64,000 bases of DNA from a virus, in the IMG/VR virus record IMGVR_UViG_3300038416_000738. One strand, written 5' to 3'. Below the pieces are notes generated by a model, which worked only from the letters and a program-made list of their open reading frames with translations, made no database searches and had not been told where the DNA came from. The stretch's first letter is position 1. Each line of letters opens with the position of its first letter. Positions 9,008-64,000 of the stretch are shown one piece after another. The position numbers were made by a program, and so were the translations under genes.

Positions 9008-9339
9008 GCGTGAAGTCGAAGATGAAGTCGAAGTCGGGGCGCAACGTTCCGAGCGAAGTCACGCGGTCGATCAACTTCCGGGTCCCGAAGTCCTGGGTCG
9101 GCAAGGTCGACGTACTACGAAAATCGAGCCTCGTTCCTGTGGAAGTCTCGCGCACGGCGATGTTTCGTTTCGCGCTGGGTCATGGACTCGAAATGCTCAT
9201 GAAGGGGAAGGGGAAGGGGAAGGGGAAGGGGAAGGGGAAGGGGAAGGGGAAGGGGACGGGCAAGAGCGCGATTCGCCCTGCCCGCTCGAGCAGTTCGCGT
9301 ACGCGGCGAGGTACCACGCGGAAAGCAGCACGAAGATGA
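9004..9339 (+). CDS. ribbon-helix-helix protein with (KG)9 repeat
   Basis: 'SINFRVPKSWVGKVD...RTAMFRFALGHGLEML' RHH-like; hexamer repeat encodes KGKGKG...; ends in ATGA overlap. Confidence 0.5.
   Translation: MSVKSKMKSKSGRNVPSEVTRSINFRVPKSWVGKVDVLRKSSLVPVEVSRTAMFRFALGHGLEMLMKGKGKGKGKGKGKGKGKGTGKSAIRPARSSSSRTRRGTTRKAARR
9202..9255 (+). repeat. (AAGGGG)x9 perfect hexanucleotide tandem repeat inside CDS
   Basis: counted directly; in frame = (Lys-Gly)9. Confidence 0.9.
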
Positions 9340-10177: not shown

Positions 10178-10250
10178 GATCGATTCTGCGAGCGGCACTC
10201 TTGACAGAAGAGGTCGTCAGACGAATACCCATTGAGTGGTTCCCAATTTG

Positions 10251-10313
10251 TTTGACGAATGATGACTTGATCTGCTAAGTCATCCTCTGCGTGTGAGAGT
10301 CTGCGTGTGAGAG
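10251..10313 (+). promoter_or_regulatory. promoter/operator region: TTGACG-N18-TAAGTC with 8-bp inverted repeat GATGACTT-N8-AAGTCATC and 13-bp direct repeat x2
   Basis: read directly in 225-bp intergenic gap upstream of the histone-like gene. Confidence 0.4.
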
Positions 10314-10402
10314 GCTCGTTTCCCGGATCGAGGAAGGACCCGCGCCATAGGTGCGCGACGGGTCCTGTTCCGGGGGCGACCGCAAGCGAAAGTGATAAGT
10401 CG

Positions 10403-11212
10403 ATGGGCAGCAAGAAGGTGAAGGTGCACGGCTCGAAGAACACGAAGACCGTTGCGAAAAAGGCGAAGGCCGTTGCGAAAAAGGCGAAGACCGTCGCGAA
10501 GCCGGTCGCGGTCGCGGCGAAGCGGGCGAAGAAGGGTGGAGCGAAGGCGGCTGCAAAGGTCGCCGTGACCGTGGCGCCGGGCTTGAAGACGCCGGGCGCC
10601 GTCGCCGCGACGTTCTCAGCCGAGCGTCCCGGGTACCTGCCGCGCGAGGGATCGCTCCCCGACATGATCTTCCGCCGGCTGATGGACAAGCCCATGCCCT
10701 ACGGCGAGCTTGCCCGGCACCTCGAAGCGGACTCCAAGCTCACGGGCGACGCGCTCACGAGCCAGCTCTCCGCGGCGCTCTACGATCTCTGCAACAAGCG
10801 CGGCGTCCTCGTTCGCGTCGACTACGACACGTTTCAGCCTGTTCCGGCGAGTCGTTCGCGCGGTGCCCTCTACACGGTCGCGGATCGTGCCCGTGCGGGG
10901 TACGAAGCGCGCAGCAAGCTCAGCGCCAAAAGGGGTGCGAGCGTGCCGACTGCCGCAGGGCCTGGACAGCTCGATTTGACGAGCTTCGGGCGCCCGATGA
11001 ACGGTGCCGCGTCGGCTGCGTCGGTTGCATCGGCGGCGACTGCGCAGGTGAGCGATGCGATGCTGATCGTGCTTCCCAAGCCCGAGAAGATGAGCGACGC
11101 GATGTACGCGGAGCTTCGCGCAGCGCGGCAGGCGGCGGCCGACCAGGTCCGTCAGGCGACGGAAGCGATCACTGCGATCGATCGCCTCCTCAAGGTTCCG
11201 AGCTTCTCCTGA
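10403..11212 (+). CDS. histone H1-like lysine/alanine-rich DNA-binding protein
   Basis: N-terminal AKKAKAVAKKAKTVAKPVAVAAKRAKKGGAKAAAK repeats typical of bacterial H1/Hc1-like proteins; globular C-terminal domain. Confidence 0.65.
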   Translation: MGSKKVKVHGSKNTKTVAKKAKAVAKKAKTVAKPVAVAAKRAKKGGAKAAAKVAVTVAPGLKTPGAVAATFSAERPGYLPREGSLPDMIFRRLMDKPMPYGELARHLEADSKLTGDALTSQLSAALYDLCNKRGVLVRVDYDTFQPVPASRSRGALYTVADRARAGYEARSKLSAKRGASVPTAAGPGQLDLTSFGRPMNGAASAASVASAATAQVSDAMLIVLPKPEKMSDAMYAELRAARQAAADQVRQATEAITAIDRLLKVPSFS

Positions 11213-11223
11213 GGGGCAGTTCC

Positions 11224-12804
11224 GTGCTTCGTCCTTCCGTTGAAACCGAACGCCTCTCGACCGTGCAACGCGCCGCGCGGCACGTGCTCGACAAGGTCTC
11301 GCGAGGCGAGTCCGGTTTCGGCTCGATGGAGGTCTTCCCGTCCGACGTGCCGAGGGCGCTCTCGGGATCAACGGAGTACATCTGGCGTGCGCAGCTCGCG
11401 TGGGCCTGGTGGAAGGCGGCCTATCTCTCGTGCAGAATCCTGGGGCGCGGGGTCGGCAAGCATCGGAACTACACGCTCCTGCCTGCGGGTCGCGAAGCGC
11501 TCGAGCGAATCGCGAGCGATCCAGTCCTCGCGTCGTTCTACGTGAAGGCGAAGCGGAACACGGCTTCCGAGAGCTATCCCTCGGATTGGTTTCGGCCCGA
11601 AGCTCTCCGGGCGCCTCCTCCGAAGGAGGAGGACGCGGAAGAGCAGGACGCGGAAGAGGAGGACGCGGAAGAGGAGGACGCTGAAGACGAAACTTCTGTG
11701 GGAGGACAGGAAGAGCAAGGGCCTGCCTCCGAGGACAGGGAGAAGGATAGGAGCACGGGCATCGAGGTCGAACGCGAGCGACGTTGGGATCTCATGATCG
11801 GTGTGCTCGAGAAGGTGAGCACGCAATTCGGTGACTTGAAGACCGAGATCACTTCCCTCAAGGCCGAGGTCAAGGCGCAGTCGGATTTCGTGCTCGAGGT
11901 CGCACAAAGGATCGAGGCTTCGAGCCGGTCGAGCGTGACGAGCGTGCCGAGCGTGACGCGTGAAGATCTCGGGCGCGTCTCGGCAGAAATCGTGCAAGCG
12001 ATCGTTTCGGAGAAGACGAAGCTCCTTCACGTCGGCGCCAATTTTCTCGAATCCATTCGTTCCGTGCATTCGAAGCTCGACGAGGAGGAGCAGCGCCGGC
12101 AGGCGTGGGGCGAGAAGCTCTTGGCGTCGGTCGGCGGGATCGGATCCGAAGTTGCGGTACTCGCGAAGCGCGGAAAATCGCATGAGGAACTCGAAGTCTT
12201 CATCTCGGGACGCATTCAGCAGCTCGCGGACGACCTGAGGGGCGACCAAGAGGATCTTCTCGAGGCGGCTGCCGAGACCTTCGACAAGCGTCTCGGTGCG
12301 CTCGACAAACGTGTGGCCACGGCTGTCGCGAAGACGCCGGACTTGAGCGGCTTCAAGGAGGATCTGGCTGGCTTGAGGGAGGACTTCTCCGGCGTGAGGG
12401 AGGACTTCTCGAGCGTGCGCGAAGACGTGGAGGCGCTGCTCGAGTCGATCGACGAGTTCGATAAGGGCTTCATCTCGAGGCTCGAGGAGTACAAGAAGCA
12501 GGGCTCGGCGACGAACGAGACCTTCGTGCGCGTGACCGAGGGCGTGCAGGACATTCTGCGTGCGACGCGCGCCGTTTGCAGTGCGATGGTAGAGGTCAGC
12601 GTGCAGCGCAGCGCGGCGGCGGGTGCGTCGCCGGAGGAGATTCGCAGGAGGGCCGAGGGCGCGATCGACACCTTGGAGACTGCCTCGAAGGCGATCAAGG
12701 GGCGCGTGTCCTCGCTCGGCGCGGGCATCATCAAGAACACGGCTTTCGATGTGGACGACGGCGACAGCGACGGTGACAAGGGTGCGGAGGAAGAAGAGTC
12801 ATGA
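11224..12804 (+). CDS. large coiled-coil protein with acidic EEDAEE repeats
   Basis: 526 aa; 18-bp imperfect repeats at ~11625-11690 encode (EEDAEE)n; long heptad-like regions. Confidence 0.6.
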   Translation: MLRPSVETERLSTVQRAARHVLDKVSRGESGFGSMEVFPSDVPRALSGSTEYIWRAQLAWAWWKAAYLSCRILGRGVGKHRNYTLLPAGREALERIASDPVLASFYVKAKRNTASESYPSDWFRPEALRAPPPKEEDAEEQDAEEEDAEEEDAEDETSVGGQEEQGPASEDREKDRSTGIEVERERRWDLMIGVLEKVSTQFGDLKTEITSLKAEVKAQSDFVLEVAQRIEASSRSSVTSVPSVTREDLGRVSAEIVQAIVSEKTKLLHVGANFLESIRSVHSKLDEEEQRRQAWGEKLLASVGGIGSEVAVLAKRGKSHEELEVFISGRIQQLADDLRGDQEDLLEAAAETFDKRLGALDKRVATAVAKTPDLSGFKEDLAGLREDFSGVREDFSSVREDVEALLESIDEFDKGFISRLEEYKKQGSATNETFVRVTEGVQDILRATRAVCSAMVEVSVQRSAAAGASPEEIRRRAEGAIDTLETASKAIKGRVSSLGAGIIKNTAFDVDDGDSDGDKGAEEEES

Positions 12805-18356: not shown

Positions 18357-20228
18357 ATGCAGGTGCAGCTTGAGAGGTACGGCGCGCCCGGCGCGGCGGG
18401 CGCAGTGAAGTTCTCGCTCAAGAAGGGCAGCGAGGGGGACTTCCGATGCCTGCTCTCACCGTACGGGTGGCAGGCGAGCGTGCCGTCTTCGAAAGCGCCG
18501 GACGTGAAGGTCCTGTCGCAGCGCGATTTCCTCGTGCCCGTGCACGCCGCGATGCTCGCATGCGCGGCGCTCTCGAAGGCGAGGGTCGAGATCTTTGCCC
18601 CGAAGGAAGTCCAAGCGGCGGTCCGCTCCGCGGCGTGGAAGTGTAACGCGCCGAAGCTTTACGCTTACCAGAAGCAGGGCGCGGAGTTCCTCCGATCGCG
18701 GCGCCGGGCCATCCTTGCCGACGACATGGGCACCGGCAAGACGGCGCAGTCGCTTTCGGCGCTCGACGCCTCGAAGGCCGCGCTCATCGTCGTGCCTCCC
18801 GTCGTGCTCGGATCTTGGTTCGAGGAGGCGAGGCGCTGGCGACCCGATCTCACGGCGCGGATCTGGCAGCCCCCCTACGGGATCTGGGCGGAGCCGGGCG
18901 AGATCTGCATCATCGCCTATTCGAAGCTCCCCTATGAGAGCATCGAGTCGAGACTCAGGTGCCCTACGTGCGGCCGCCTCTCGGCATCCTATGTGGACGA
19001 GGCGAGCGTGCTCGTCGAGGAGTTCGTCGAGGAAGACCGCCGCGGGATCGAGAAGAAGATCCAGAGGTGGTCGTACCGATGTGACAAGGATCATGGGGGA
19101 CTCTGCGGCCAAGGTTTCACGGCGCGCGACGACGAGGCCGAGGTCGAGCACATCTGGATCGGGCCGCGGCCGAAGCACGCCGTGCAGCTCATCGTCGACG
19201 AGGCCCACTGGTGCAAGAACCGAAATGCGAAGCGCACGATCGGCGTGCGGACGGTCGCGGCGCAGTGCTGGACGACCTGGATGCTCACGGGAACGCCGCT
19301 CCTCAACGAGCCGATGGAGCTTTGGACGCTCTGCCAATCCTTCCCTGGTCAAGGAAAAGGCAGCTCGGGCGCGAGCGACGCGTTCGGGTCCTTCCCGAAG
19401 TTCGTCGAGATGTTCCACGGCAAGAGGAAGTTCTGGGGCGGCTACGACTGGGCCGTGGACGACGAGGTCGAGCCCGAAGCCCGAGCACGCTTCGCGACGC
19501 TCGCGCTCCGGCGCACGAGGCAGGAGGTGCTCCCAGAGCTGCCAGAGAAGACGCGACGTTTCCTCGAGATCGCGGTCGACGTGCGCGGCATGCCGCACTG
19601 GGGCGAGCCGGAGAACTCCGCGCTCGGCAGACTGAGCGACGATGAGGTGCTCGGGGCCTGCGCACCCGAGGGATCCCTGTCCACGGTGCGCCGCGAGCTT
19701 GCCTCGCGGAAGCTCGACTCGCTCGAGCAGCTCGTCGAGGAGTACGAGGCGACGGGCGAGCCCGTCGTGGTGTTTAGTTACCACAAGGATCCGATCAAGC
19801 AGCTCGGCGCGCGCAAGGGTTGGGCGTGGATCACGGGCGAGACGAACGATCGCGACCGGACGGCGCACGTCGCGGCTTTTCAGGCGGGAAAACTCAAGGG
19901 CCTCGCCGGGACCATCGGCGCGATGGGTGTCGGGGTCACGCTCACGCGGTCCTCGAACATGCTATTCCTCGACCGCGACTTCGTCCCGGCGAACAACCTC
20001 CAGGCGGAGGACCGCGAGATGCGGATCGGACAGAAGCGCGCCGTGCTCATCACGATCCTCGTGACGGATCACCCCGTCGACAGGCGGGTGCGCGCCGTGC
20101 TCGAGAAGAAGGAGAGGTTGCTCGAGGCGCTCGATCTCTCCGAGGGATCGAATGTGCGCGCGGAGGTTGCGTCCCACAAGGGCAGAATAAAGATGGCTGG
20201 CAAGGTCCCTGATTCGGAGGTCTCATGA
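18357..20228 (+). CDS. SNF2-family helicase with Cys-cluster insertion
   Basis: 'LADDMGTGKT' motif I, 'LIVDEAHWCKN' motif II, helicase C-terminal motifs; CPTCG...RCDKDHGGLCGQ insertion between. Confidence 0.85.
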   Translation: MQVQLERYGAPGAAGAVKFSLKKGSEGDFRCLLSPYGWQASVPSSKAPDVKVLSQRDFLVPVHAAMLACAALSKARVEIFAPKEVQAAVRSAAWKCNAPKLYAYQKQGAEFLRSRRRAILADDMGTGKTAQSLSALDASKAALIVVPPVVLGSWFEEARRWRPDLTARIWQPPYGIWAEPGEICIIAYSKLPYESIESRLRCPTCGRLSASYVDEASVLVEEFVEEDRRGIEKKIQRWSYRCDKDHGGLCGQGFTARDDEAEVEHIWIGPRPKHAVQLIVDEAHWCKNRNAKRTIGVRTVAAQCWTTWMLTGTPLLNEPMELWTLCQSFPGQGKGSSGASDAFGSFPKFVEMFHGKRKFWGGYDWAVDDEVEPEARARFATLALRRTRQEVLPELPEKTRRFLEIAVDVRGMPHWGEPENSALGRLSDDEVLGACAPEGSLSTVRRELASRKLDSLEQLVEEYEATGEPVVVFSYHKDPIKQLGARKGWAWITGETNDRDRTAHVAAFQAGKLKGLAGTIGAMGVGVTLTRSSNMLFLDRDFVPANNLQAEDREMRIGQKRAVLITILVTDHPVDRRVRAVLEKKERLLEALDLSEGSNVRAEVASHKGRIKMAGKVPDSEVS

Positions 20229-20512
20229 CGACGGACAACGTGGTGGAGATGAAGAAAAGCGAAACGAAGGACGAGGGGCCGCTCTCGCCCGAGGAGATCG
20301 TGCCGCCGTTCACGCAGATCGTGACGGCGATGACGATGGGCGACGAGGGGTTCCCTTCCGAGGCGCTCTACGGTCTCGACGGCGTGGGCCGCGTCTGGGA
20401 GTGGATTCCCGGTAACCCCGAGTTCGAGGGTTCACGCGATGGATGGGAGCTTCTCCCGAACGTGACCTTCAAGGAGGGCGTCGAGCCGCCCGCGAAACGC
20501 AAACCGAGGTGA
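20225..20512 (+). CDS. hypothetical protein
   Basis: ATGA overlap; 95 aa. Confidence 0.45.
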   Translation: MTTDNVVEMKKSETKDEGPLSPEEIVPPFTQIVTAMTMGDEGFPSEALYGLDGVGRVWEWIPGNPEFEGSRDGWELLPNVTFKEGVEPPAKRKPR

Positions 20513-20520
20513 GGTGAGTC

Positions 20521-20808
20521 ATGACGAAGGCAAAGAAGAAGGCTGCGAAGAAGGCTCAGAAAGTCAAGTCGAAGGCTGCACCGAAGAAGGCGTTGAAGAA
20601 GTCGGTGAAGAAGTCGGCGAAGAAGATGACAAAGAAATCGTCGAAATCGTCGAAAACGTCGGCGGTGAAACAAACGACCGAGAAGGTGCTCGTTTCATCG
20701 GACGGCATGGGTGGTGAGGGGTATCCCGAGAGCGATTCTCATGAGGATGCCAATGACGTCGGAGGCTTGGCCTCGTATGACGAGATCGACCCAGGGTTTG
20801 GCGGATGA
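20521..20808 (+). CDS. lysine-rich histone H1-like protein
   Basis: N-terminal KAKKKAAKKAQKVKSKAAPKKALKKSVKKSAKK...; acidic C-terminus. Confidence 0.55.
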   Translation: MTKAKKKAAKKAQKVKSKAAPKKALKKSVKKSAKKMTKKSSKSSKTSAVKQTTEKVLVSSDGMGGEGYPESDSHEDANDVGGLASYDEIDPGFGG

Positions 20809-21077
20809 CTCGTTCGCGGAAGATGTCTTTCAAGATGGTGACGAACGAGGTCAAGACGGTGGCGGACGAGGTGCTCTGGCTCGCGCGCCACCGCAAAGAG
20901 GACGCGTGGTCCTTGGTGCGTGACTTCAAACGACTCACGCGCGGCCGTCGCGGCGAGCTTGGGCCGCTCGCTGCGACGTTGATCTCGAATCTCGAGTTCG
21001 CCTTGAAGGATGAGCAGAAAAGACTCAGGGCCGAGGCTAGAAAGAAGAAAGCGAAGAACGGAAGGGCGGTCCGATGA
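20805..21077 (+). CDS. hypothetical protein
   Basis: ATGA overlap; 90 aa. Confidence 0.45.
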   Translation: MTRSRKMSFKMVTNEVKTVADEVLWLARHRKEDAWSLVRDFKRLTRGRRGELGPLAATLISNLEFALKDEQKRLRAEARKKKAKNGRAVR

Positions 21078-21691
21078 AGAGCCTTACGCTCATCGCCGCG
21101 ATGACTCCGGACGGCGTCATCGCCGAGGACGGCAAGATCCCGTGGCACGTCCGCTCGGACATGCTTCGGTTCAAGCGCCTCACGACGGGCCACGCGATCA
21201 TCATGGGACGAAAGACGTACGAGTCGATCGGCAAGGTTTTGCCGAATCGCCACAGCCTCGTCGTGTCGCGATCCCCGCACGTGGCGTCGCTCGCGGGTCT
21301 CATCGAGCCGAAGGCGGTCGATGCCTCGGCCGCCTCGTCGCTGTCGTGGTGGACGACGTTCGATCGCGCCCTCGAGCGCGCGTACGCGCATGACCCGTCA
21401 CCGTTCGTCATTGGCGGCGGCGAGATCTACAAGCTCGCGCTGCCGCTCGCGACCACGCTGGAGATCACGTACATCGCGCGGGCCGAGGAGCGCGGCAAGC
21501 GCGACCGACGGATTGGGATGGAGAAGGTGACGCGCTTCCCGATCATTCGCCCGGATCCGTGGGACTGGCGATGCGTCCGTGCGGAGCCCGCGGCGGAGTC
21601 CGTGAGGGGCGAGGACGGGAGCGAGACGCTTTCGGAAGTAGAGGGCGTCGAGTTCCTCACCTTCGAGAGGAGGACGCGTCATGGAGACTGA
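21074..21691 (+). CDS. folA: dihydrofolate reductase
   Basis: 'LIAAMTPDGVIAEDGKIPWHVRSDMLRFKRLTTGHAIIMGRKTYESIG' canonical DHFR N-terminus; '...FVIGGGEIY'. Confidence 0.9.
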   Translation: MKSLTLIAAMTPDGVIAEDGKIPWHVRSDMLRFKRLTTGHAIIMGRKTYESIGKVLPNRHSLVVSRSPHVASLAGLIEPKAVDASAASSLSWWTTFDRALERAYAHDPSPFVIGGGEIYKLALPLATTLEITYIARAEERGKRDRRIGMEKVTRFPIIRPDPWDWRCVRAEPAAESVRGEDGSETLSEVEGVEFLTFERRTRHGD

Positions 21692-23755: not shown

Positions 23756-24124
23756 ATGGCGAAGGCGAAGAAGCGCAAGAGCGTGAGATCGAGGTCGAAG
23801 ATCCGATCGAGGGCCAGCGGTGCCCGCGCGAGCAAAGTCAACGGAAACGGAAGTGGAAACGGAAACGGAAACGGAAACGGATTGGGCGTCGATGCGTCTC
23901 ATGAGAAGAGGACGAGGGCGCGCCACGGCAACGTGATGACCGTGACGTTCCGCATCCCGGTGAACCTGAAGAAGGGCATCGAGGAGGACGCCAAGCACCT
24001 CGGGATGACGACGACGCGGTGGATGGTCGAGGCGGCGGAGGACAAGCTCGAGGGCAAGCCGCCGCGATGGTGGAAGGGTGCGCCGCCGCCCGAGTGGATC
24101 GAAGCGCGCGATCGCTCTTCGTAG
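23756..24124 (+). CDS. ribbon-helix-helix (CopG/Arc-like) protein with (GN)n repeat
   Basis: 'MTVTFRIPVNLKKGIEEDAKHLGMTTTRWMVEAAEDKL' classic RHH; basic N-terminus; own upstream 100-bp gap. Confidence 0.6.
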   Translation: MAKAKKRKSVRSRSKIRSRASGARASKVNGNGSGNGNGNGNGLGVDASHEKRTRARHGNVMTVTFRIPVNLKKGIEEDAKHLGMTTTRWMVEAAEDKLEGKPPRWWKGAPPPEWIEARDRSS

Positions 24125-28793: not shown

Positions 28794-29090
28794 ATGCTCG
28801 CGACCTCCATGAAAAATGCAGCGGCAGAGACGGGCGAGAAGAACCGGGTGACATGTGAGTGCGGCAGTCCGCTTCCGGTTCATTTTCTCGAGCTTGCGGA
28901 CGAGCGCTTCAGTCACATTTGTCAGTGCGAGCGGAAGTACAAAGTCGAAGGCGGCGCCTTCGTGCGCGACGGTTTCGAGGTGAACCCGTTTGCGCGCTTC
29001 GACGATGCGCTGGCCAAGGCGAAGAAGACGAAGAAGGCGCGGGCAAAAAAGACGAAGAAGGTGGAGACGGCGACGCGAAAGGAAGGGTGA
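28794..29090 (+). CDS. hypothetical Cys-containing protein
   Basis: ATG inside conserved GTTTGCAGTATG 12-mer; CxC...CQC. Confidence 0.4.
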   Translation: MLATSMKNAAAETGEKNRVTCECGSPLPVHFLELADERFSHICQCERKYKVEGGAFVRDGFEVNPFARFDDALAKAKKTKKARAKKTKKVETATRKEG

Positions 29091-36085: not shown

Positions 36086-36276
36086 AACAGAACCAGAACT
36101 TTGGTTTGTGGCTCAAGGGCTTCGGCTGGCTCAAGACAGTCGGTCTGCGCATCATCGGAACACGGGCGCAAATTCTCGACACGCTGACGTGGATGCGCAC
36201 GTACGGGGTGCGTGGGTTTCCAACAGCGCCCGACCCTAACGATGCGCCGTGGGTTATTCGTCGTATTGGGAGCTAA
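36082..36276 (+). CDS. hypothetical small protein
   Basis: ATGA overlap. Confidence 0.35.
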   Translation: MKQNQNFGLWLKGFGWLKTVGLRIIGTRAQILDTLTWMRTYGVRGFPTAPDPNDAPWVIRRIGS

Positions 36277-36298
36277 CCGGACGAGCACGGGATGATCC

Positions 36299-36613
36299 AT
36301 GGGCATCGAATTTCCTGTCAGCGTGGAGTGCGACAAGTGTTCGAAGCGAACGACGTTTCGCGTCGTCATCACCAAGCTCAAGCCGAATGCCGAGATGCAT
36401 CTCAAGATGGTTCATGGGTGGTTGGCGACGTCGTTACCTGAGAGCGGTGAGCTTCTCGTTACGTGTCCCGACTGTAATCCGATGCTCGTGAGCATTGCGC
36501 CACCACCGCTGTCGCCATCGTCGCTCGCAGATCTCGAAGAGGTCGTTGAAGTGGTTGGCGATCCAGCTACGGATCCCACCATGCTTGCTGGTGAAGTGCG
36601 TTCGAAAAAGTGA
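36299..36613 (+). CDS. hypothetical Zn-ribbon protein
   Basis: CDKC...CPDC. Confidence 0.4.
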   Translation: MGIEFPVSVECDKCSKRTTFRVVITKLKPNAEMHLKMVHGWLATSLPESGELLVTCPDCNPMLVSIAPPPLSPSSLADLEEVVEVVGDPATDPTMLAGEVRSKK

Positions 36614-36662
36614 AATGATCGTCGTGAAGCGGGTGACGGGTGCTTCCATTCGCGCGTGAGCC

Positions 36663-36845
36663 CTAATCTTTCGCGAGCGGCATGTACCAGTAGGTGAAGT
36701 GCGAGCGCTGGATCTCTTCCCACGGAGCCTTGGGGATCTCGACGCGCATCACGCGCTTCCAAACCTCGTACGGATCGAGGTAGCGGTGGCTATCTTGCGG
36801 ATGCTTCATCGTTTTCGCTGCACGCTTCTTCATCGGCCTCTTCAC
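36663..36845 (-). CDS. hypothetical small basic protein (only minus-strand candidate)
   Basis: non-GC-biased K/W/Y-rich composition; divergent from + gene at 36940 across an AT-richer spacer. Confidence 0.35.
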   Translation of the reverse strand: MKRPMKKRAAKTMKHPQDSHRYLDPYEVWKRVMRVEIPKAPWEEIQRSHFTYWYMPLAKD

Positions 36846-36939
36846 CCGGGACGTGGTACCACAAAATGTCGTACGCTCTCCTCGTGGTCCGTCCCTTGCA
36901 TTCAGTTGGTATGAGATGTATACCTGTGGGAGTCAAGTG

Positions 36940-37107
36940 ATGAACGATGATTCGAAGAAGGCGGACGCGGGTGAGATGGATGCAGGCGAGATGGACGCGA
37001 ACGATCGCGTGACCTTGGCGATCCTGAAGGCAGAGGCCGTCCTCGGCGACGCCATCCGTGGGAAGAGGTCGAGCGTGCCGAGGCGGCGGTGGCTAAGGAA
37101 GAACTGA
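36940..37107 (+). CDS. hypothetical small acidic protein
   Basis: weak. Confidence 0.25.
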   Translation: MNDDSKKADAGEMDAGEMDANDRVTLAILKAEAVLGDAIRGKRSSVPRRRWLRKN

Positions 37108-37249
37108 GCGCTGTTTTTCGGCGACGCCGGTCTCGAGTCCCGGGAGGTCCCGATGAGAACGACTTCCTTGCGTTTTCTTTCGCGCAGCGTGGTGTCGGTT
37201 CGGCGGGCGTGGTGCTCAGGGTGCTCCGAACACTGCGGGGGCGTAAGCC

Positions 37250-49299: not shown

Positions 49300-49677
49300 G
49301 TGACCATGAATCGCTTGAAGCCGGCCCTACCGCCTGGCACGCACTACGCGGACAGCAAGAACATCGTCGTGAGGTCGATCGTCGGTACGGACTCGAACAC
49401 CACGTGGCGCGACAACATTCGGAACCTCTTGAAGACGGCGCGCGGCGGAGCCGACAGCGAGTGGCGGCGATTCGGTTACGGTCTCCTTTATGACGTGGTG
49501 GGCTGGACACCGGGCCAATACGCGCTCGGGATGTACGCGGCGCTCCACGACTGCGGGGTGATCCTCTCCAAGAAAAAGTTTGGCGAGAAGGACCTCTCCC
49601 GGATCCGGGAGAAACTCGAGCAAGCAGGTTTCAATCTCGTCCCCGAATGGAAAGCGGCGAGTGGTGGAGCGAAATGA
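49300..49677 (+). CDS. hypothetical protein (partner of nucleotidyltransferase)
   Basis: ORF track; stop overlaps NTase start. Confidence 0.45.
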   Translation: MTMNRLKPALPPGTHYADSKNIVVRSIVGTDSNTTWRDNIRNLLKTARGGADSEWRRFGYGLLYDVVGWTPGQYALGMYAALHDCGVILSKKKFGEKDLSRIREKLEQAGFNLVPEWKAASGGAK

Positions 49678-50624
49678 ATTTCGACGTCGCGTCCCGCACG
49701 ATCCTCCTCGTCCGCCACGGCTCGCACGCCTACGGCATGAATACACCTACGTCGGACTTGGATTCGAAGGGCGTGTGCATCGAGCCGAAGGCATTTCATT
49801 TCGGGTTCCTTCACACGTTCGAGCAAGAGACGCGCGAGGCGAAGAAAGGCGCCGCGGAGGACCGCGTCGTTTACTCGCTCAAGAAGTTCGCGGGGCTCGC
49901 GGCCGAGTGCAACCCGAACATCATTGAGGTGCTCCACGTGGCGGACGAGCACGTGCTCGCTATCGACGCGTTCGGCGAGGAGCTTCGCGCGATGCGGCAC
50001 GCTTTCGTCTCCGCGAAGGCGCGCTGGACATTTGCGGGTTACGCGCACTCGCAATTGAAGCGCATCAAGACGCACCGCAAGTGGCTCGTCGACCCGCCGA
50101 AGGCGCCGCCGACCCGCAAGGAGTTCGGCCTCTCCGAGGTGAGCAAGATCTCGAAGGCCGAGTTGGGCGCGTTCGACGCCGCCGTGGATCAGTCCCTCGA
50201 GATCGAACTCTCGCGCGAGCTGATGACGGTCTTCACGCGCGAGAAGCAGTACCAAGCGGCCAAGAGGCACTACGACCAGTTCGAGAACTGGAAGAAGACG
50301 CGCAACGCCGCGCGCGCCGAACTCGAGGCGAAGTTCGGGCTCGACACGAAGCACGCCGCGCACCTCGTGAGGCTCCTCCGCATGTGCAAGGAGATCATGA
50401 CGACTGGCGAGGTCGTCGTGAAGAGGCCCGACGCCGCGGAGTTTCTCTCCATCCGGGCCGGGGCATGGACCTACGACCAGATCGTCGAGTACGCCGAGAG
50501 GACCGAGGCCGAGTGCGCCGCACTTTACGATGCAGGCGCGACCGTCCGCCACGAACCCGACCGCATCGCCATCGACGCCGCGATCGTGGGCATGACTGAA
50601 CGTTACCTCGCCGCATACGGTTGA
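49674..50624 (+). CDS. Pol-beta-superfamily nucleotidyltransferase
   Basis: 'HGSHAYGMNTPTSDLDSKG' = GS-X10-D-x-D active-site signature of MNT/CD-NTase-type nucleotidyltransferases; 317 aa. Confidence 0.6.
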   Translation: MNFDVASRTILLVRHGSHAYGMNTPTSDLDSKGVCIEPKAFHFGFLHTFEQETREAKKGAAEDRVVYSLKKFAGLAAECNPNIIEVLHVADEHVLAIDAFGEELRAMRHAFVSAKARWTFAGYAHSQLKRIKTHRKWLVDPPKAPPTRKEFGLSEVSKISKAELGAFDAAVDQSLEIELSRELMTVFTREKQYQAAKRHYDQFENWKKTRNAARAELEAKFGLDTKHAAHLVRLLRMCKEIMTTGEVVVKRPDAAEFLSIRAGAWTYDQIVEYAERTEAECAALYDAGATVRHEPDRIAIDAAIVGMTERYLAAYG

Positions 50625-61417: not shown

Positions 61418-61476
61418 AAAAGGAAAAAGGACGGTATCGATGATCCGAAAAGCAGTACAGTAAGGAACCACTGACC

Positions 61477-61620
61477 ATGAGCGGAATTCGAAGGTGCGAG
61501 GCGTGCGGGAACTTGTTCAAGATCAAGAACGACGGTCCCGAACCGAGGACCGATGCGAGCCGACGGGACGTTCCCGAAGCACGTCTGTTCCAAGTGCAAG
61601 GAGCCAAAGAAGGAGCATGA
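61477..61620 (+). pseudogene. possible frameshifted Zn-ribbon miniprotein
   Basis: CEAC in this frame; matching CSKC...* half lies in +1 frame (61553-61636). Confidence 0.25.
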
Positions 61621-61814
61621 GCAAAAGCAAGGATGACATCTGCCGGCGCCCGGGCTGCGGCAAGCGTCGGTGCTGGCACATGGGTCAAGGTGGATTGGGG
61701 ATGTGTGGACCCGGCAAAAACGGTTTCACTGGAGATTCGACCTTTGAGCAAGCGTTGAGGGACGGCGGCTTCGTGGAGAGCGAAGTTCTCTTAGAGGAGG
61801 AAGGGCGACGATGA
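61617..61814 (+). CDS. hypothetical Cys-rich small protein
   Basis: ATGA overlap; CxxxGCGKRRC. Confidence 0.35.
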   Translation: MSKSKDDICRRPGCGKRRCWHMGQGGLGMCGPGKNGFTGDSTFEQALRDGGFVESEVLLEEEGRR

Positions 61815-62059
61815 AGCGGATCATCCAAGAAGGCATCACCCAGTACAAGGCGTCGTGCTCCGAGTGCGGCGCTCGGTTCACCTACGAGCGCGAAGACGTG
61901 CACCACAACTACGTTCACGGCGGCGACTACGTCTCGTGCCCGAGCTGTGGACACTCGTGCAGGCATCACGGTGCATCCGGAACATCGTGGCCGGGATGCG
62001 GAGGTGGCTTGCGCCTGCCGAATTCGTGGCGAAACGATTGGAGCTGTCAGCGATCATGA
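61811..62059 (+). CDS. hypothetical Zn-ribbon protein
   Basis: CSECG...CPSCGHSC. Confidence 0.4.
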   Translation: MKRIIQEGITQYKASCSECGARFTYEREDVHHNYVHGGDYVSCPSCGHSCRHHGASGTSWPGCGGGLRLPNSWRNDWSCQRS

Positions 62060-62713: not shown

Positions 62714-62916
62714 GGAAGAGAATGTCGTTCAAGGGACATCGTGAAGTTGAGAGCGCTCTCGGTCGCCTCGCGCCAGGCGATCGTCGTGAGCTTGAACTCT
62801 TCCTCCGGTACAGGCGACTCGTGGGCGAAGCTGTGCGTGCGGGTTGCACGATCCGGGAAGCCGAGCGCGCGATCTATCCCGACGTCTATCTCGGGTCGAG
62901 CGAGGAGCGGCCGTGA
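62710..62916 (+). CDS. hypothetical protein
   Basis: ATGA overlap. Confidence 0.4.
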   Translation: MRKRMSFKGHREVESALGRLAPGDRRELELFLRYRRLVGEAVRAGCTIREAERAIYPDVYLGSSEERP

Positions 62917-64000
62917 AATCGATCCCCGTCTTCTACACGCCCAAGATGGTCGTCAGCTCCGAGCGCGCCTCGCCGAGCGCGGGCAAACCGGCCGCCGTCG
63001 TCGCGTCATGGAAAGAAAAATTCCCGATCGAGATCGTCGAACCCATACCCGTCACCGTGGTCGAACTCGCGCGGGCACACGATCGCAAATTCGTGGAGGA
63101 CGTGCTCGCTTGCCGCGCGCCGAACGGCTTCGGCAATCGATCGCGTGAGGTCGCGGACTCGCTCCCCTACACGTCGGGCGCGATGCTCTCGGCGGCGCGC
63201 CGCGCGCTCGAGACGAAGAGCGTGGCAGCGGCGCCGTGTTCGGGTTTCCATCACGCGGGCCACGCGCGGGCGGAAGGGTTCTGCACGTTCAACGGGCTCA
63301 TGGTGACGGCGCTTGCCCTGAAAGAGGAGAAGCTCGCTGAGAGCGTAGGCATTCTCGACCTCGACATGCATTACGGCAACGGCACCGACAACATCATCCA
63401 GAAGCTCGGAATCGATTGGGTCCATCACTTCACCGCGGGCATGAACTGGACGCGGCCCGACCAGGCGAAGGTGTTCCTGGAAGAGGGGCTCGAGGAGAAT
63501 CTCGACCGGATAGTGGTCAACAACGTCGACATCGTCCTCTACCAAGCCGGCGCTGACCCACACATCCACGACCCGTACGGCGGGTGGCTGACGACCGAGC
63601 AGCTCCGCGAGCGTGACAGGATCGTCTTCCAGACGTTCTTCGATTACGGGATCCCCGTCGCGTGGAACCTCGCGGGCGGCTACCAGGTGGAGGAAGACGG
63701 GAGCATCCCGAAGGTGCTCGAGATCCACGACCACACGATGTTCGAGTGCATGAATTGTGACGGATACGAGGACGTCGAGCAGTTTCGGCAGGAGCGAGAA
63801 CAGCCGACCGGTTTCCAGATCGTGGACATCACTGTCGGGTCCACGTGGCTCTACGTTTCGCTCGCGCGCGCATCCAGTGAATATGTTCTTCTCGTGCAGC
63901 GCGATCGTTTCGAACGGATTCGCAAGGCGACGACGGAGCAGCTCCAGCGTTACGAGCTTCTCGCGGACGGAAGCGCGGTCCACTGGCCAGCGATCGACGA
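62913..64000 (+). CDS. histone-deacetylase-family (HDAC/acetylpolyamine amidohydrolase-like) protein, 3' partial
   Basis: GTGA overlap start; 'CSGFHHAGHARAEGFCTFNG' and 'ILDLDMHYGNGTDNI' match the HDAC-fold catalytic HH and D-x-H...D metal-binding motifs; runs off window end. Confidence 0.7.
   Translation, partial: MKSIPVFYTPKMVVSSERASPSAGKPAAVVASWKEKFPIEIVEPIPVTVVELARAHDRKFVEDVLACRAPNGFGNRSREVADSLPYTSGAMLSAARRALETKSVAAAPCSGFHHAGHARAEGFCTFNGLMVTALALKEEKLAESVGILDLDMHYGNGTDNIIQKLGIDWVHHFTAGMNWTRPDQAKVFLEEGLEENLDRIVVNNVDIVLYQAGADPHIHDPYGGWLTTEQLRERDRIVFQTFFDYGIPVAWNLAGGYQVEEDGSIPKVLEIHDHTMFECMNCDGYEDVEQFRQEREQPTGFQIVDITVGSTWLYVSLARASSEYVLLVQRDRFERIRKATTEQLQRYELLADGSAVHWPAID

Follow-up and report, generated by a model that had tools for sequence, protein, structure and literature searches.

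In the 64,000-nucleotide stretch of DNA filed as IMG/VR record IMGVR_UViG_3300038416_000738 (hereafter, the window), we found that two genes, A and B, each encode a protein with an extreme, repeat-encoded lysine-rich tract. The initial annotation had described both products as histone H1/Hc1-like proteins, borne by a mobile element, that might compact or silence DNA. Our analysis favors a different reading, one that we judge probable though by no means secure: A is a winged-helix protein that carries an expanded basic tail and works with a partner protein, and B is a disordered protein composed of a basic and an acidic part. The sequence data indicate that A and B are selected and probably nucleic-acid-binding proteins of the element, and to this extent the earlier interpretation survives; kinship with H1 or Hc1 does not, as neither protein matched any such family.

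Two genes with repeat-built lysine tracts

Gene A occupies positions 10403–11212 of the plus strand and encodes 269 amino acids, while B occupies positions 20521–20808 of the same strand and encodes 95. Both open reading frames (ORFs) lie exactly where the initial annotation had placed them, as confirmed by the ORF list, by codon statistics and by independent gene callers, whose predictions for about 20 metagenome contigs encoding identical proteins agree with these coordinates. The G+C content at third codon positions is 0.87 in the tract of A and 0.78 in that of B, and AAG is the favored lysine codon in both tracts, as it is in the rest of the element; we conclude that the reading frames are correct. 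The start of A is the ATG at position 10403. A GTG at position 10307 was considered as an alternative and rejected: in L013, a diverged relative of this locus, 1-nucleotide insertions and deletions across 10307–10402 break the frame, and the N-termini of the homologues begin with a conserved MGS/MVS-KK. The same insertions and deletions show that no coding sequence lies in 10307–10402 and that translation begins at ATG 10403.

The codons of A change in two distinct ways. In comparison with the L013 orthologue, 32 codon differences in the winged-helix region are synonymous and 6 are non-synonymous, whereas the tail has 7 synonymous and 25 non-synonymous differences plus 8 gapped codons, with its charge kept. 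For B, genes of the same kind occupy the syntenic position in two diverged relatives. From these sequence comparisons, we conclude that A and B are genuine, selected and conserved genes; the proposal that their lysine repeats might be low-complexity artefacts without conservation is not borne out.

We then asked how unusual the tracts are. The 126 predicted proteins of the window, in which lysine makes up 6.4% of residues, yield 19,229 segments of 40 residues. The richest such segment contains 14 lysines in A and 20 in B, and no other protein of the window exceeds 10. At a lysine frequency of 6.4%, the binomial probabilities of at least 14 and at least 20 lysines in 40 residues are 9e-8 and 5e-14, respectively, and after multiplication by the number of segments they remain at 1.8e-3 for A and 1e-9 for B. 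The lysine richness of both tracts is thus far above chance. Residues 1–60 of A comprise 17 Lys, 16 Ala, 10 Val and 2 Pro, with no Asp or Glu and a net charge of +18; residues 1–50 of B comprise 22 Lys, 9 Ala and 1 Pro, again with no Asp or Glu, for a net charge of +22. In-frame tandem repeats encode both tracts: a 21-nucleotide unit present 2.8 times in A (10443–10500), and units of 12 nucleotides (3.6 copies, 20583–20625) and 9 nucleotides (3.1 copies, 20634–20661) in B.

Both proteins therefore show the composition of bacterial H1-like, lysine-rich low-complexity tails, that is, a repeat-built, Lys/Ala-rich, acid-free tract of at least about 40 residues. Nevertheless, to call them Lys/Ala-repeat proteins, as the initial annotation did, describes only a part of each. 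The tract of A spans residues 1 to about 56–74 of 269, roughly a quarter of the protein, and the other ~195 residues form a winged helix, a linker and a C-terminal helix. In B, the lysine-rich part is the N-terminal 50 residues, about half of the protein, and residues 51–95 are acidic, with a net charge of -10. The tails of A and B did not align with each other, and we thus found no paralogy between them; neither protein contains an S/TPKK motif ([ST]P[KR][KR]).

Next, we compared both proteins with named families, using Pfam at E<=1, NCBIfam, PHROGs and a phmmer search of all PDB chains at E<=10. No Pfam family matched A, and B gave only sub-threshold noise, none of it relevant; in particular, the Linker_histone, Hc1 and HC2 models matched neither protein, and phmmer returned no PDB chain for either. 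The H-NS, HU/IHF, Fis and Lsr2 families likewise gave no match to A or B in Pfam, NCBIfam or PHROGs, nor did helix-turn-helix families in these three collections match A at E<=1. Weak NCBIfam matches of B were dismissed as chance, since they involved lysine-rich segments of two unrelated proteins, a sigma factor and an adenylate kinase. When the predicted fold of A was compared with known structures, histone H5 ranked 21st, after bacterial and archaeal regulators, so that the globular domains GH1 and GH5 are not its closest likeness. Linker-histone tails are C-terminal, rich in Lys, Ala and Pro, and carry S/TPKK motifs; the lysine tract is N-terminal in both A and B. The term "histone H1/Hc1-like" is accordingly justified for composition only: there is no match to H1, H5, Hc1 or Hc2 in Pfam, NCBIfam, PHROGs or PDB. 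As judged from sequence, A and B resemble the tail of histone H1 by convergence and not by descent. That either protein compacts, silences or protects the DNA of the element is speculation.

A winged-helix protein, its arms and its partner

An AlphaFold model built on seven homologues divides A into four parts. The N-terminal Lys/Ala tail (residues 1–74, densest over 1–56; 10403–10624, plus strand, as are all features of A that follow) is predicted to be disordered, with a predicted local distance difference test (pLDDT) score below 50 in addition to its composition and tandem repeat; its length and sequence vary among orthologues, and its charge is kept. The winged helix (residues 85–159; 10655–10879) is modeled at a pLDDT of 82–88 as three helices (85–95, 100–110 and 115–132) and a beta-hairpin wing (136–139 and 156–159), and is followed by a further predicted helix at residues 161–177 (10883–10933). 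A disordered linker then carries the motif GPGQLDLTSF (residues 186–195; 10958–10987), whose consensus, [EG]P[GR]Q[LRI]DL[ST][SGA]F, most family members retain at identities as low as ~35–48%. This conservation makes the motif a candidate peptide docking site; we take it to be loosely similar to the QL[SD]LF peptides that bind the beta (sliding) clamp. Finally, a family-conserved amphipathic helix (residues 232–263; 11096–11191; pLDDT ~79–83) lies at the C-terminus and, by analogy with PadR and MarR, is a candidate dimerization element.

Three helices with a beta-hairpin wing are the fold of PadR/MarR/ArsR regulators, and the model thus presents A as mainly a winged-helix protein of this structural type. 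Because A has no profile match to PadR, MarR or ArsR, we liken it to these regulators and do not file it as a member.

To place A within a family, we used the alignments A1 and A5. A word search of 5.8 billion sequences returned six homologues, a profile of the tail-less core recovered 9 representative clusters among 1.84 billion proteins, and six further short metagenome loci contain homologues. By contrast, no relatives were found in 185,579 species-representative genomes or in a collection of viral contigs. All confident members of the family bear a net-positive N-terminal arm (+5 to +22) before the invariant YLPR-G start of the domain. Only in the immediate clade of the window is this arm 48–84 residues long, rich in Lys and Ala, and charged +15 to +22; in more distant members it has 20–36 residues and a charge of +5 to +10. 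The alignments thus indicate that the long tract of A is a lineage-specific expansion, through in-frame tandem repeats, of a short basic arm. One member, P0014, has instead a 137-residue N-terminal extension with four canonical AT-hooks (K-R-G/S-P-G-R-P-R-K, with GRP cores).

Such an interchange of tails has been described for CarD, in which the HMGA-type AT-hook domain of the Myxococcus protein and the H1-like domain of the Anaeromyxobacter protein can be exchanged with function intact (PMC2919716). In the A family, as in the CarD family, H1-like and AT-hook tails swap, with the Lys/Ala tail on the protein of the window and the four AT-hooks on P0014. The presence of AT-hooks in P0014 is the one indirect indication that the tail of A may bind or condense DNA. 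The pattern of selection described above, with a constrained core and a fast-evolving tail that keeps its charge, fits an accessory module that anchors the protein to DNA.

The region upstream of A suggests a target for such a protein. The gap that precedes A measures 225 nucleotides and is among the 8 largest of the window, where the median gap is 1 nucleotide. Within it, a conserved non-coding block of about 85 nucleotides (10200–10284, plus strand) is near-invariant relative to L013 and is better conserved than the coding sequences, as the proteins of the two loci are only ~75% identical. The block contains a TTGACA hexamer and two palindromes, TCGTC-A-GACGA (10214–10224) and a perfect 7-8-7 palindrome, ATGACTT-N8-AAGTCAT (10262–10283), each of which is unique in the window. 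A simple scan found no full sigma-70 consensus promoter in this region, and no Rfam family matched anywhere in the window, the region upstream of A included. From its conservation, we regard the block as a candidate promoter/operator. Regulators of the PadR/MarR/ArsR type bind palindromes as dimers, and the conserved palindromes upstream of A, together with its conserved C-terminal helix, would be consistent with this mode of binding. A tandem pair of CTGCGTGTGAGAG upstream of A was also evaluated as a dispersed binding site and rejected: the sequence occurs nowhere else and is single-copy in L013, which points to a recent duplication and not to a regulon motif.

Directly downstream of A lies a second conserved gene (11224–12804, plus strand) that encodes a protein of 526 amino acids with an isoelectric point of 4.8. 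In all seven loci in which the region is visible, a gene of this kind directly follows the A homologue, at a distance of 4–42 nucleotides. Across the family, the partner is an acidic coiled-coil protein of ~450–570 amino acids; no family match reached threshold. An N-domain (residues ~1–120; a helix and a beta-hairpin) is followed by an acidic disordered segment (~124–171) and then by ~330 residues of long helices. This description is restricted to the layout of secondary structure because the AlphaFold model, built on two sequences, has a mean pLDDT of 46. In alignment A6, the N-domain shows the invariant pattern W-R-x-Q-L/I-A-W ... G-x-G-x-x-K-H-x-x-Y-x-L. The partner gene contains a 15-nucleotide in-frame repeat, present 4.1 times (11626–11687), from which an acidic EEDAE tract is translated. 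This tract and the basic tail of A are both built from repeats and could be co-evolving countercharges. Relatives with 44–75% identity retain the wider gene order (an FtsK-like gene ... A, partner, a gene for ~300 amino acids, a gene for ~185 amino acids, a Dam methyltransferase ... SNF2).

Together, the regulator-type winged helix, the palindromic region upstream of its own gene and the obligate partner suggest that A would act at specific sites, as a regulator or adaptor to which the tail is an accessory, and not as a bulk compactor. We propose that A probably dimerizes through its C-terminal helix and that its winged helix would provide specificity, most likely for the palindromes upstream of its own gene, such that A would regulate its own operon. 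Slippage of in-frame repeats would have inflated an ancestral short arm into the present polycation of ~56–74 residues, which may add non-specific electrostatic affinity for DNA and so allow tighter or longer-lived binding, sliding or bridging. In these activities, A would act together with the acidic coiled-coil protein encoded directly downstream.

Protein B and the host element

In B, the charges are segregated. The basic part (residues 1–50; 20521–20670, plus strand) contains the lysines and the repeats, and the acidic part (residues 51–95; 20671–20805, plus strand) ends in ...SDSHEDANDVGGLASYDEIDPGFGG; the overall net charge is about +12. A Shine-Dalgarno sequence, GAGGTGAGGTGAG, precedes the gene, which belongs to a translationally coupled string on the plus strand (18357–21691) with overlapping ATGA stop/start junctions: a SNF2-family helicase (18357–20228), ORF95 (20225–20512), B, ORF90 (20805–21077) and a dihydrofolate reductase (DHFR; 21074–21691), the first and last of these identified by Pfam. 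ORF90 itself has a basic C-terminal tail and ends in RKKKAKNGR.

The order SNF2, ORF95, B, ORF90, DHFR is the same in L013 and in L014, a second relative, where B-like ORFs occupy the slot after SNF2 (L013:20192–20491, 99 amino acids; L014:11689–11910, 73 amino acids). The word search returned a single non-identical homologue of B, P0008, with 74% identity; the acidic C-terminus (...SDSHEDANDVGGLASYDEIDPGF) is the best conserved part, and the lysine tract differs by an insertion or deletion. In all four orthologues, a basic part of 40–50 residues (net +19 to +22) is joined to a remainder with a net charge of -5 to -12. This combination of a conserved layout with a fast-evolving sequence is what would be expected of a functional disordered protein with segregated charges. 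We suggest that the lysine-rich half of B would bind electrostatically to nucleic acid or to a different polyanion, that its acidic C-terminus may fold back to dampen this binding or may recruit a partner, and that B is likely co-expressed with the SNF2-type DNA translocase.

Both genes reside on a large, uncultivated element. The window has a G+C content of 63% and a steadily positive GC skew, and a gene map trained on codon usage contains ~126 genes, nearly all on the plus strand and packed with the 1-nucleotide median gap noted above. We found no tRNA genes in the window and no recognizable housekeeping functions in the window and its flanks. DNA nearly identical to that of the window is present on many contigs in several samples; the longest such contig measures 261,538 bp (ena:ERZ27250124:k141_837401), and the element is thus at least 261 kb in size. 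A relative with ~75% identity measures 258,892 bp (contig_44825). Our reading of the element covers the window plus 10-kb flanks, ~84 kb of the at least 261 kb, and throughout this length nearly all genes are small, co-oriented ORFs, mostly without a known family. Their products include a ComM-like ATPase, Ku, an FtsK/SpoIIIE translocase, orphan Dam-type methyltransferases and SNF2. Other cargo includes HicA, an ArdC-type anti-restriction protein, DHFR, OmpA, an ABC ATPase, a histone-deacetylase-family enzyme, NUDIX and a pyrophosphatase-family protein that is MazG-like as read from its PHROG name.

In this portion, we saw no hallmarks that would type the element. No capsid, terminase, portal, relaxase, type IV secretion system or replication initiator was seen in the ~84 kb, and the ten largest proteins of unknown identity, when compared with PHROGs, gave no virion hallmarks. 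A phage collection contained no near-identical DNA, the viral contig collection contained neither the element nor relatives of its SNF2 protein, and none of the 185,579 representative genomes carries the element. An attempt to type the element by a tblastn search of FtsK against plasmids and phages was set aside, as it gave only generic motor-domain matches (~42–47%) that do not discriminate. PADLOC returned only generic methyltransferase, SNF2 and FtsK-like domain matches, and no defense system with A or B. Gene content and organization (ArdC, HicA, Ku, orphan Dam and co-orientation) indicate a mobile or extrachromosomal bacterial element. This conclusion is well supported and carries no assignment to jumbo phage, megaplasmid or another type; the claim of a mobile element thus stands as regards cargo and organization, but no phage or plasmid hallmark accompanies it in the ~84 kb.

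Several other features of the element deserve mention. In-frame microsatellites abound in the window, which yielded 39 tandem-repeat entries. One of these, GAAGGG present 10.7 times (9201–9264), encodes (Gly-Lys)x10 in a small basic protein of 109 amino acids with an isoelectric point of 12 (9010–9339). Four of the six retrieved metagenome contigs begin ~50–250 bp past this microsatellite, ~1.1–1.4 kb upstream of A, which is also where contigs of 243 kb begin; the microsatellite probably causes assemblies to break or differs in length among populations. Basic low-complexity tails also occur in the products of two further small genes (23756–24124 and 28794–29090). One product is likely a ribbon-helix-helix protein (YlcI/YnfO-like) with a basic tail at its N-terminus and an (Asn-Gly)x7 repeat; the other is Cys-rich and terminates in AKAKKTKKARAKKTKK. 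The element seems to favor such tails on small proteins that are likely to bind DNA.

The histone-deacetylase-family protein (PF00850 with DUF2442, 392 amino acids) begins at about position 62913 and runs past the end of the window at 64000 (L007:10858–12036). It could act on acetyl-lysine proteins or acetyl-polyamines; a link to the lysine-rich proteins is pure speculation. An RNA-repair cluster comprises an RlaP nucleotidyltransferase and HAD_SAK_2 in the window (49674–50624) and, just downstream of the window, Ro60/TROVE with a vWA domain, an RNA ligase and a NUDIX hydrolase (L007:13727–17108); no Y-RNA-like or other Rfam RNA was detected within the window. Upstream of the window, L010:1–8657 is the only minus-strand block that we saw and contains the HicA toxin, an ArdC-like protein (ArdcN plus MPTase-PolyVal) and small ORFs, after which DUF7007 and the ComM-like Mg-chelatase ATPase follow on the plus strand. 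The 261.5-kb contig ends ~2 kb from this block, which may mark a boundary of the element or a segment resembling a leading region. Gene A lies 20–27 kb from one contig end in both ~260-kb relatives (261,538 and 258,892 bp), and the matching maximal lengths and positions of A hint at a linear genome with defined ends or at a shared repeat. The two largest apparently non-coding stretches of the window, of 577 and 638 nucleotides, lie within 36086–37249 and 61418–62055, respectively; the former lies in the part of the window with the lowest G+C content (0.596) and adjoins an ORF on the minus strand (36663–36833), one of only three called. Neither stretch has an Rfam match; an origin, regulatory RNAs or promoters could reside there.

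Alternative explanations and known systems

We considered whether other explanations account better for these data. The picture drawn by the initial annotation, in which A and B are histone-like nucleoid proteins that coat DNA in bulk and compact or silence the element or its host in the style of Hc1, Hc2 or the C-terminal domain of H1, is in our view unlikely, although several observations speak for it. Both tracts are strong polycations, with +18 over 60 residues and +22 over 50; H1-like lysine repeats condense DNA in vitro (PMC3643593); and nucleoid proteins of the H-NS, HU or Lsr2 type are often carried by mobile elements (PMC6606824). Moreover, the small size of B, most of which is tail, would suit a bulk binder, a SNF2 translocase adjoins it, and the element also encodes the histone-deacetylase-family enzyme. 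However, neither protein is homologous to any histone-like family, A is dominated by a regulator-type winged helix and comes with operator-like palindromes and an obligate partner, and the basic half of B is joined to a net-acidic remainder that lowers its overall charge to ~+12. Most arms of the A family, at 20–36 residues, are too short for bulk compaction, so that compaction cannot be the core function of the family. At the opposite extreme, the lysine tracts might be functionless products of repeat slippage that are tolerated and not selected. Tandem repeats do encode them, they vary in length and sequence between close relatives, and the whole window abounds in similar microsatellites, yet we find this explanation hardly credible. 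Lysine codons are AT-rich, and the tracts nevertheless persist in an element of 63% GC; the tails are nearly free of acidic residues, and their net charge is kept in all orthologues despite rapid turnover; every confident A-family member has a basic arm, replaced by AT-hooks in one; and the whole layout of B is kept at 74% identity and lower.

The partner gene raises another possibility, namely that A and the coiled-coil protein form a module for DNA segregation or organization, with A as an adaptor like TubR, AspA or ParR, the partner as a scaffold or filament, and the tail as a means to spread or bridge. This we consider doubtful: no NTPase of the ParA, TubZ or ParM type is adjacent, each palindrome is single-copy in place of an iterated, centromere-like array, the model of the partner is of low confidence, and a conventional partition system may lie in the other ~180 kb of the element. 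An extension of this idea, in which A and its partner constitute an undescribed DNA-organizing or segregation module peculiar to one clade of ~260-kb extrachromosomal elements and B, the SNF2 translocase with which it is co-translated and the histone-deacetylase-family enzyme complete a chromatin-like toolkit (polycation coat, remodeler and lysine deacylase) that packages or marks the element's own DNA, strikes us as improbable. We hold a similarly low opinion of the proposal that the lysine tracts target polyphosphate granules or RNA, or neutralize packaged element DNA in a virion or during transfer. B is indeed small, disordered and highly basic, as internal DNA-condensing proteins tend to be. 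The element also bears many RNA-repair genes (RlaP, HAD_SAK_2, Ro60/TROVE and RNA ligase), and AlgP, a classic bacterial "H1-like" protein, locates to polyphosphate granules (PMC9239181). Against this, the tail of A is fused to a winged helix of the DNA-binding type, its place is taken in P0014 by AT-hooks, which bind the DNA minor groove, and no virion genes were seen in 84 kb of an element that is absent from the viral contig collection. We therefore retain the reading of A as a winged-helix protein with an expanded basic tail and a partner, and of B as a disordered basic/acidic protein.

Among the closest known systems are proteins whose polycationic tails have DNA affinity, with precedents in DdbA (PMC3643593), mycobacterial Ku (PMC3553676) and CarD (PMC2919716); by analogy, DNA affinity of the tails of A and B is plausible. 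Like A, DdbA of Streptomyces, Hlp/HupB and Ku (with its PAKKA units) of mycobacteria, and CarD of Anaeromyxobacter join a folded domain related to DNA or RNA polymerase to a Lys/Ala-rich, repeat-built disordered extension whose repeat number varies between lineages. A differs from them in its fold, a previously undescribed winged-helix family without a Pfam or NCBIfam match; in its tail, which is N-terminal, rich in Val and not in Pro, and devoid of PAKKA or S/TPKK units; and in its context, as it is encoded on a mobile element and not on a chromosome and has an obligate coiled-coil partner gene. Relative to PadR, MarR and ArsR-SmtB regulators, A lacks membership by sequence and any evident ligand or metal site, and it has a long basic tail and a disordered linker of ~50 residues with a motif. 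Its tail lies at the opposite end from that of the linker histones H1 and H5, in addition to the missing S/TPKK motifs and Linker_histone match.

B, being small and mostly tract, compares more readily with Hc1, Hc2 and AlgP than does A, which is mostly folded domain. B has in addition a conserved acidic C-terminal half, a feature that Hc1, Hc2 and AlgP are not known to have. The tracts of A and B resemble those of all three proteins in being Lys/Ala-rich and built from short in-frame repeats of variable number, as in Hc2 (PMC2848022). Like the nucleoid proteins of other mobile elements, such as the H-NS-like Sfh and Pmr, the HU-like TF1 and the Lsr2-like CgpS, A and B would exemplify DNA-architectural or silencing proteins that an element supplies for itself (PMC6606824); those others are members of the H-NS, HU/IHF, Fis or Lsr2 families, whereas A and B belong to none.

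If our reading is correct, A would represent the second natural case, after CarD, in which H1-like and AT-hook tails interchange on one DNA-binding scaffold, this time in a new winged-helix family encoded by a mobile element. Polycationic disordered tails would then be a modular means, rapidly evolvable by repeat slippage, to tune the DNA residence of specific proteins, and a type that is neither H-NS nor HU would join the DNA-architectural proteins borne by mobile elements. The practical value is modest, and the element itself is the more interesting object: at least 261 kb, missing from catalogues of viruses and genomes, composed mostly of family-less genes, and equipped with RNA-repair, histone-deacetylase-family and Ku cargo. 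Lysine-rich tails that serve as modular DNA anchors are already a known theme in DdbA, Hlp, Ku and CarD, and A and B add to it a variant on a poorly understood giant element.

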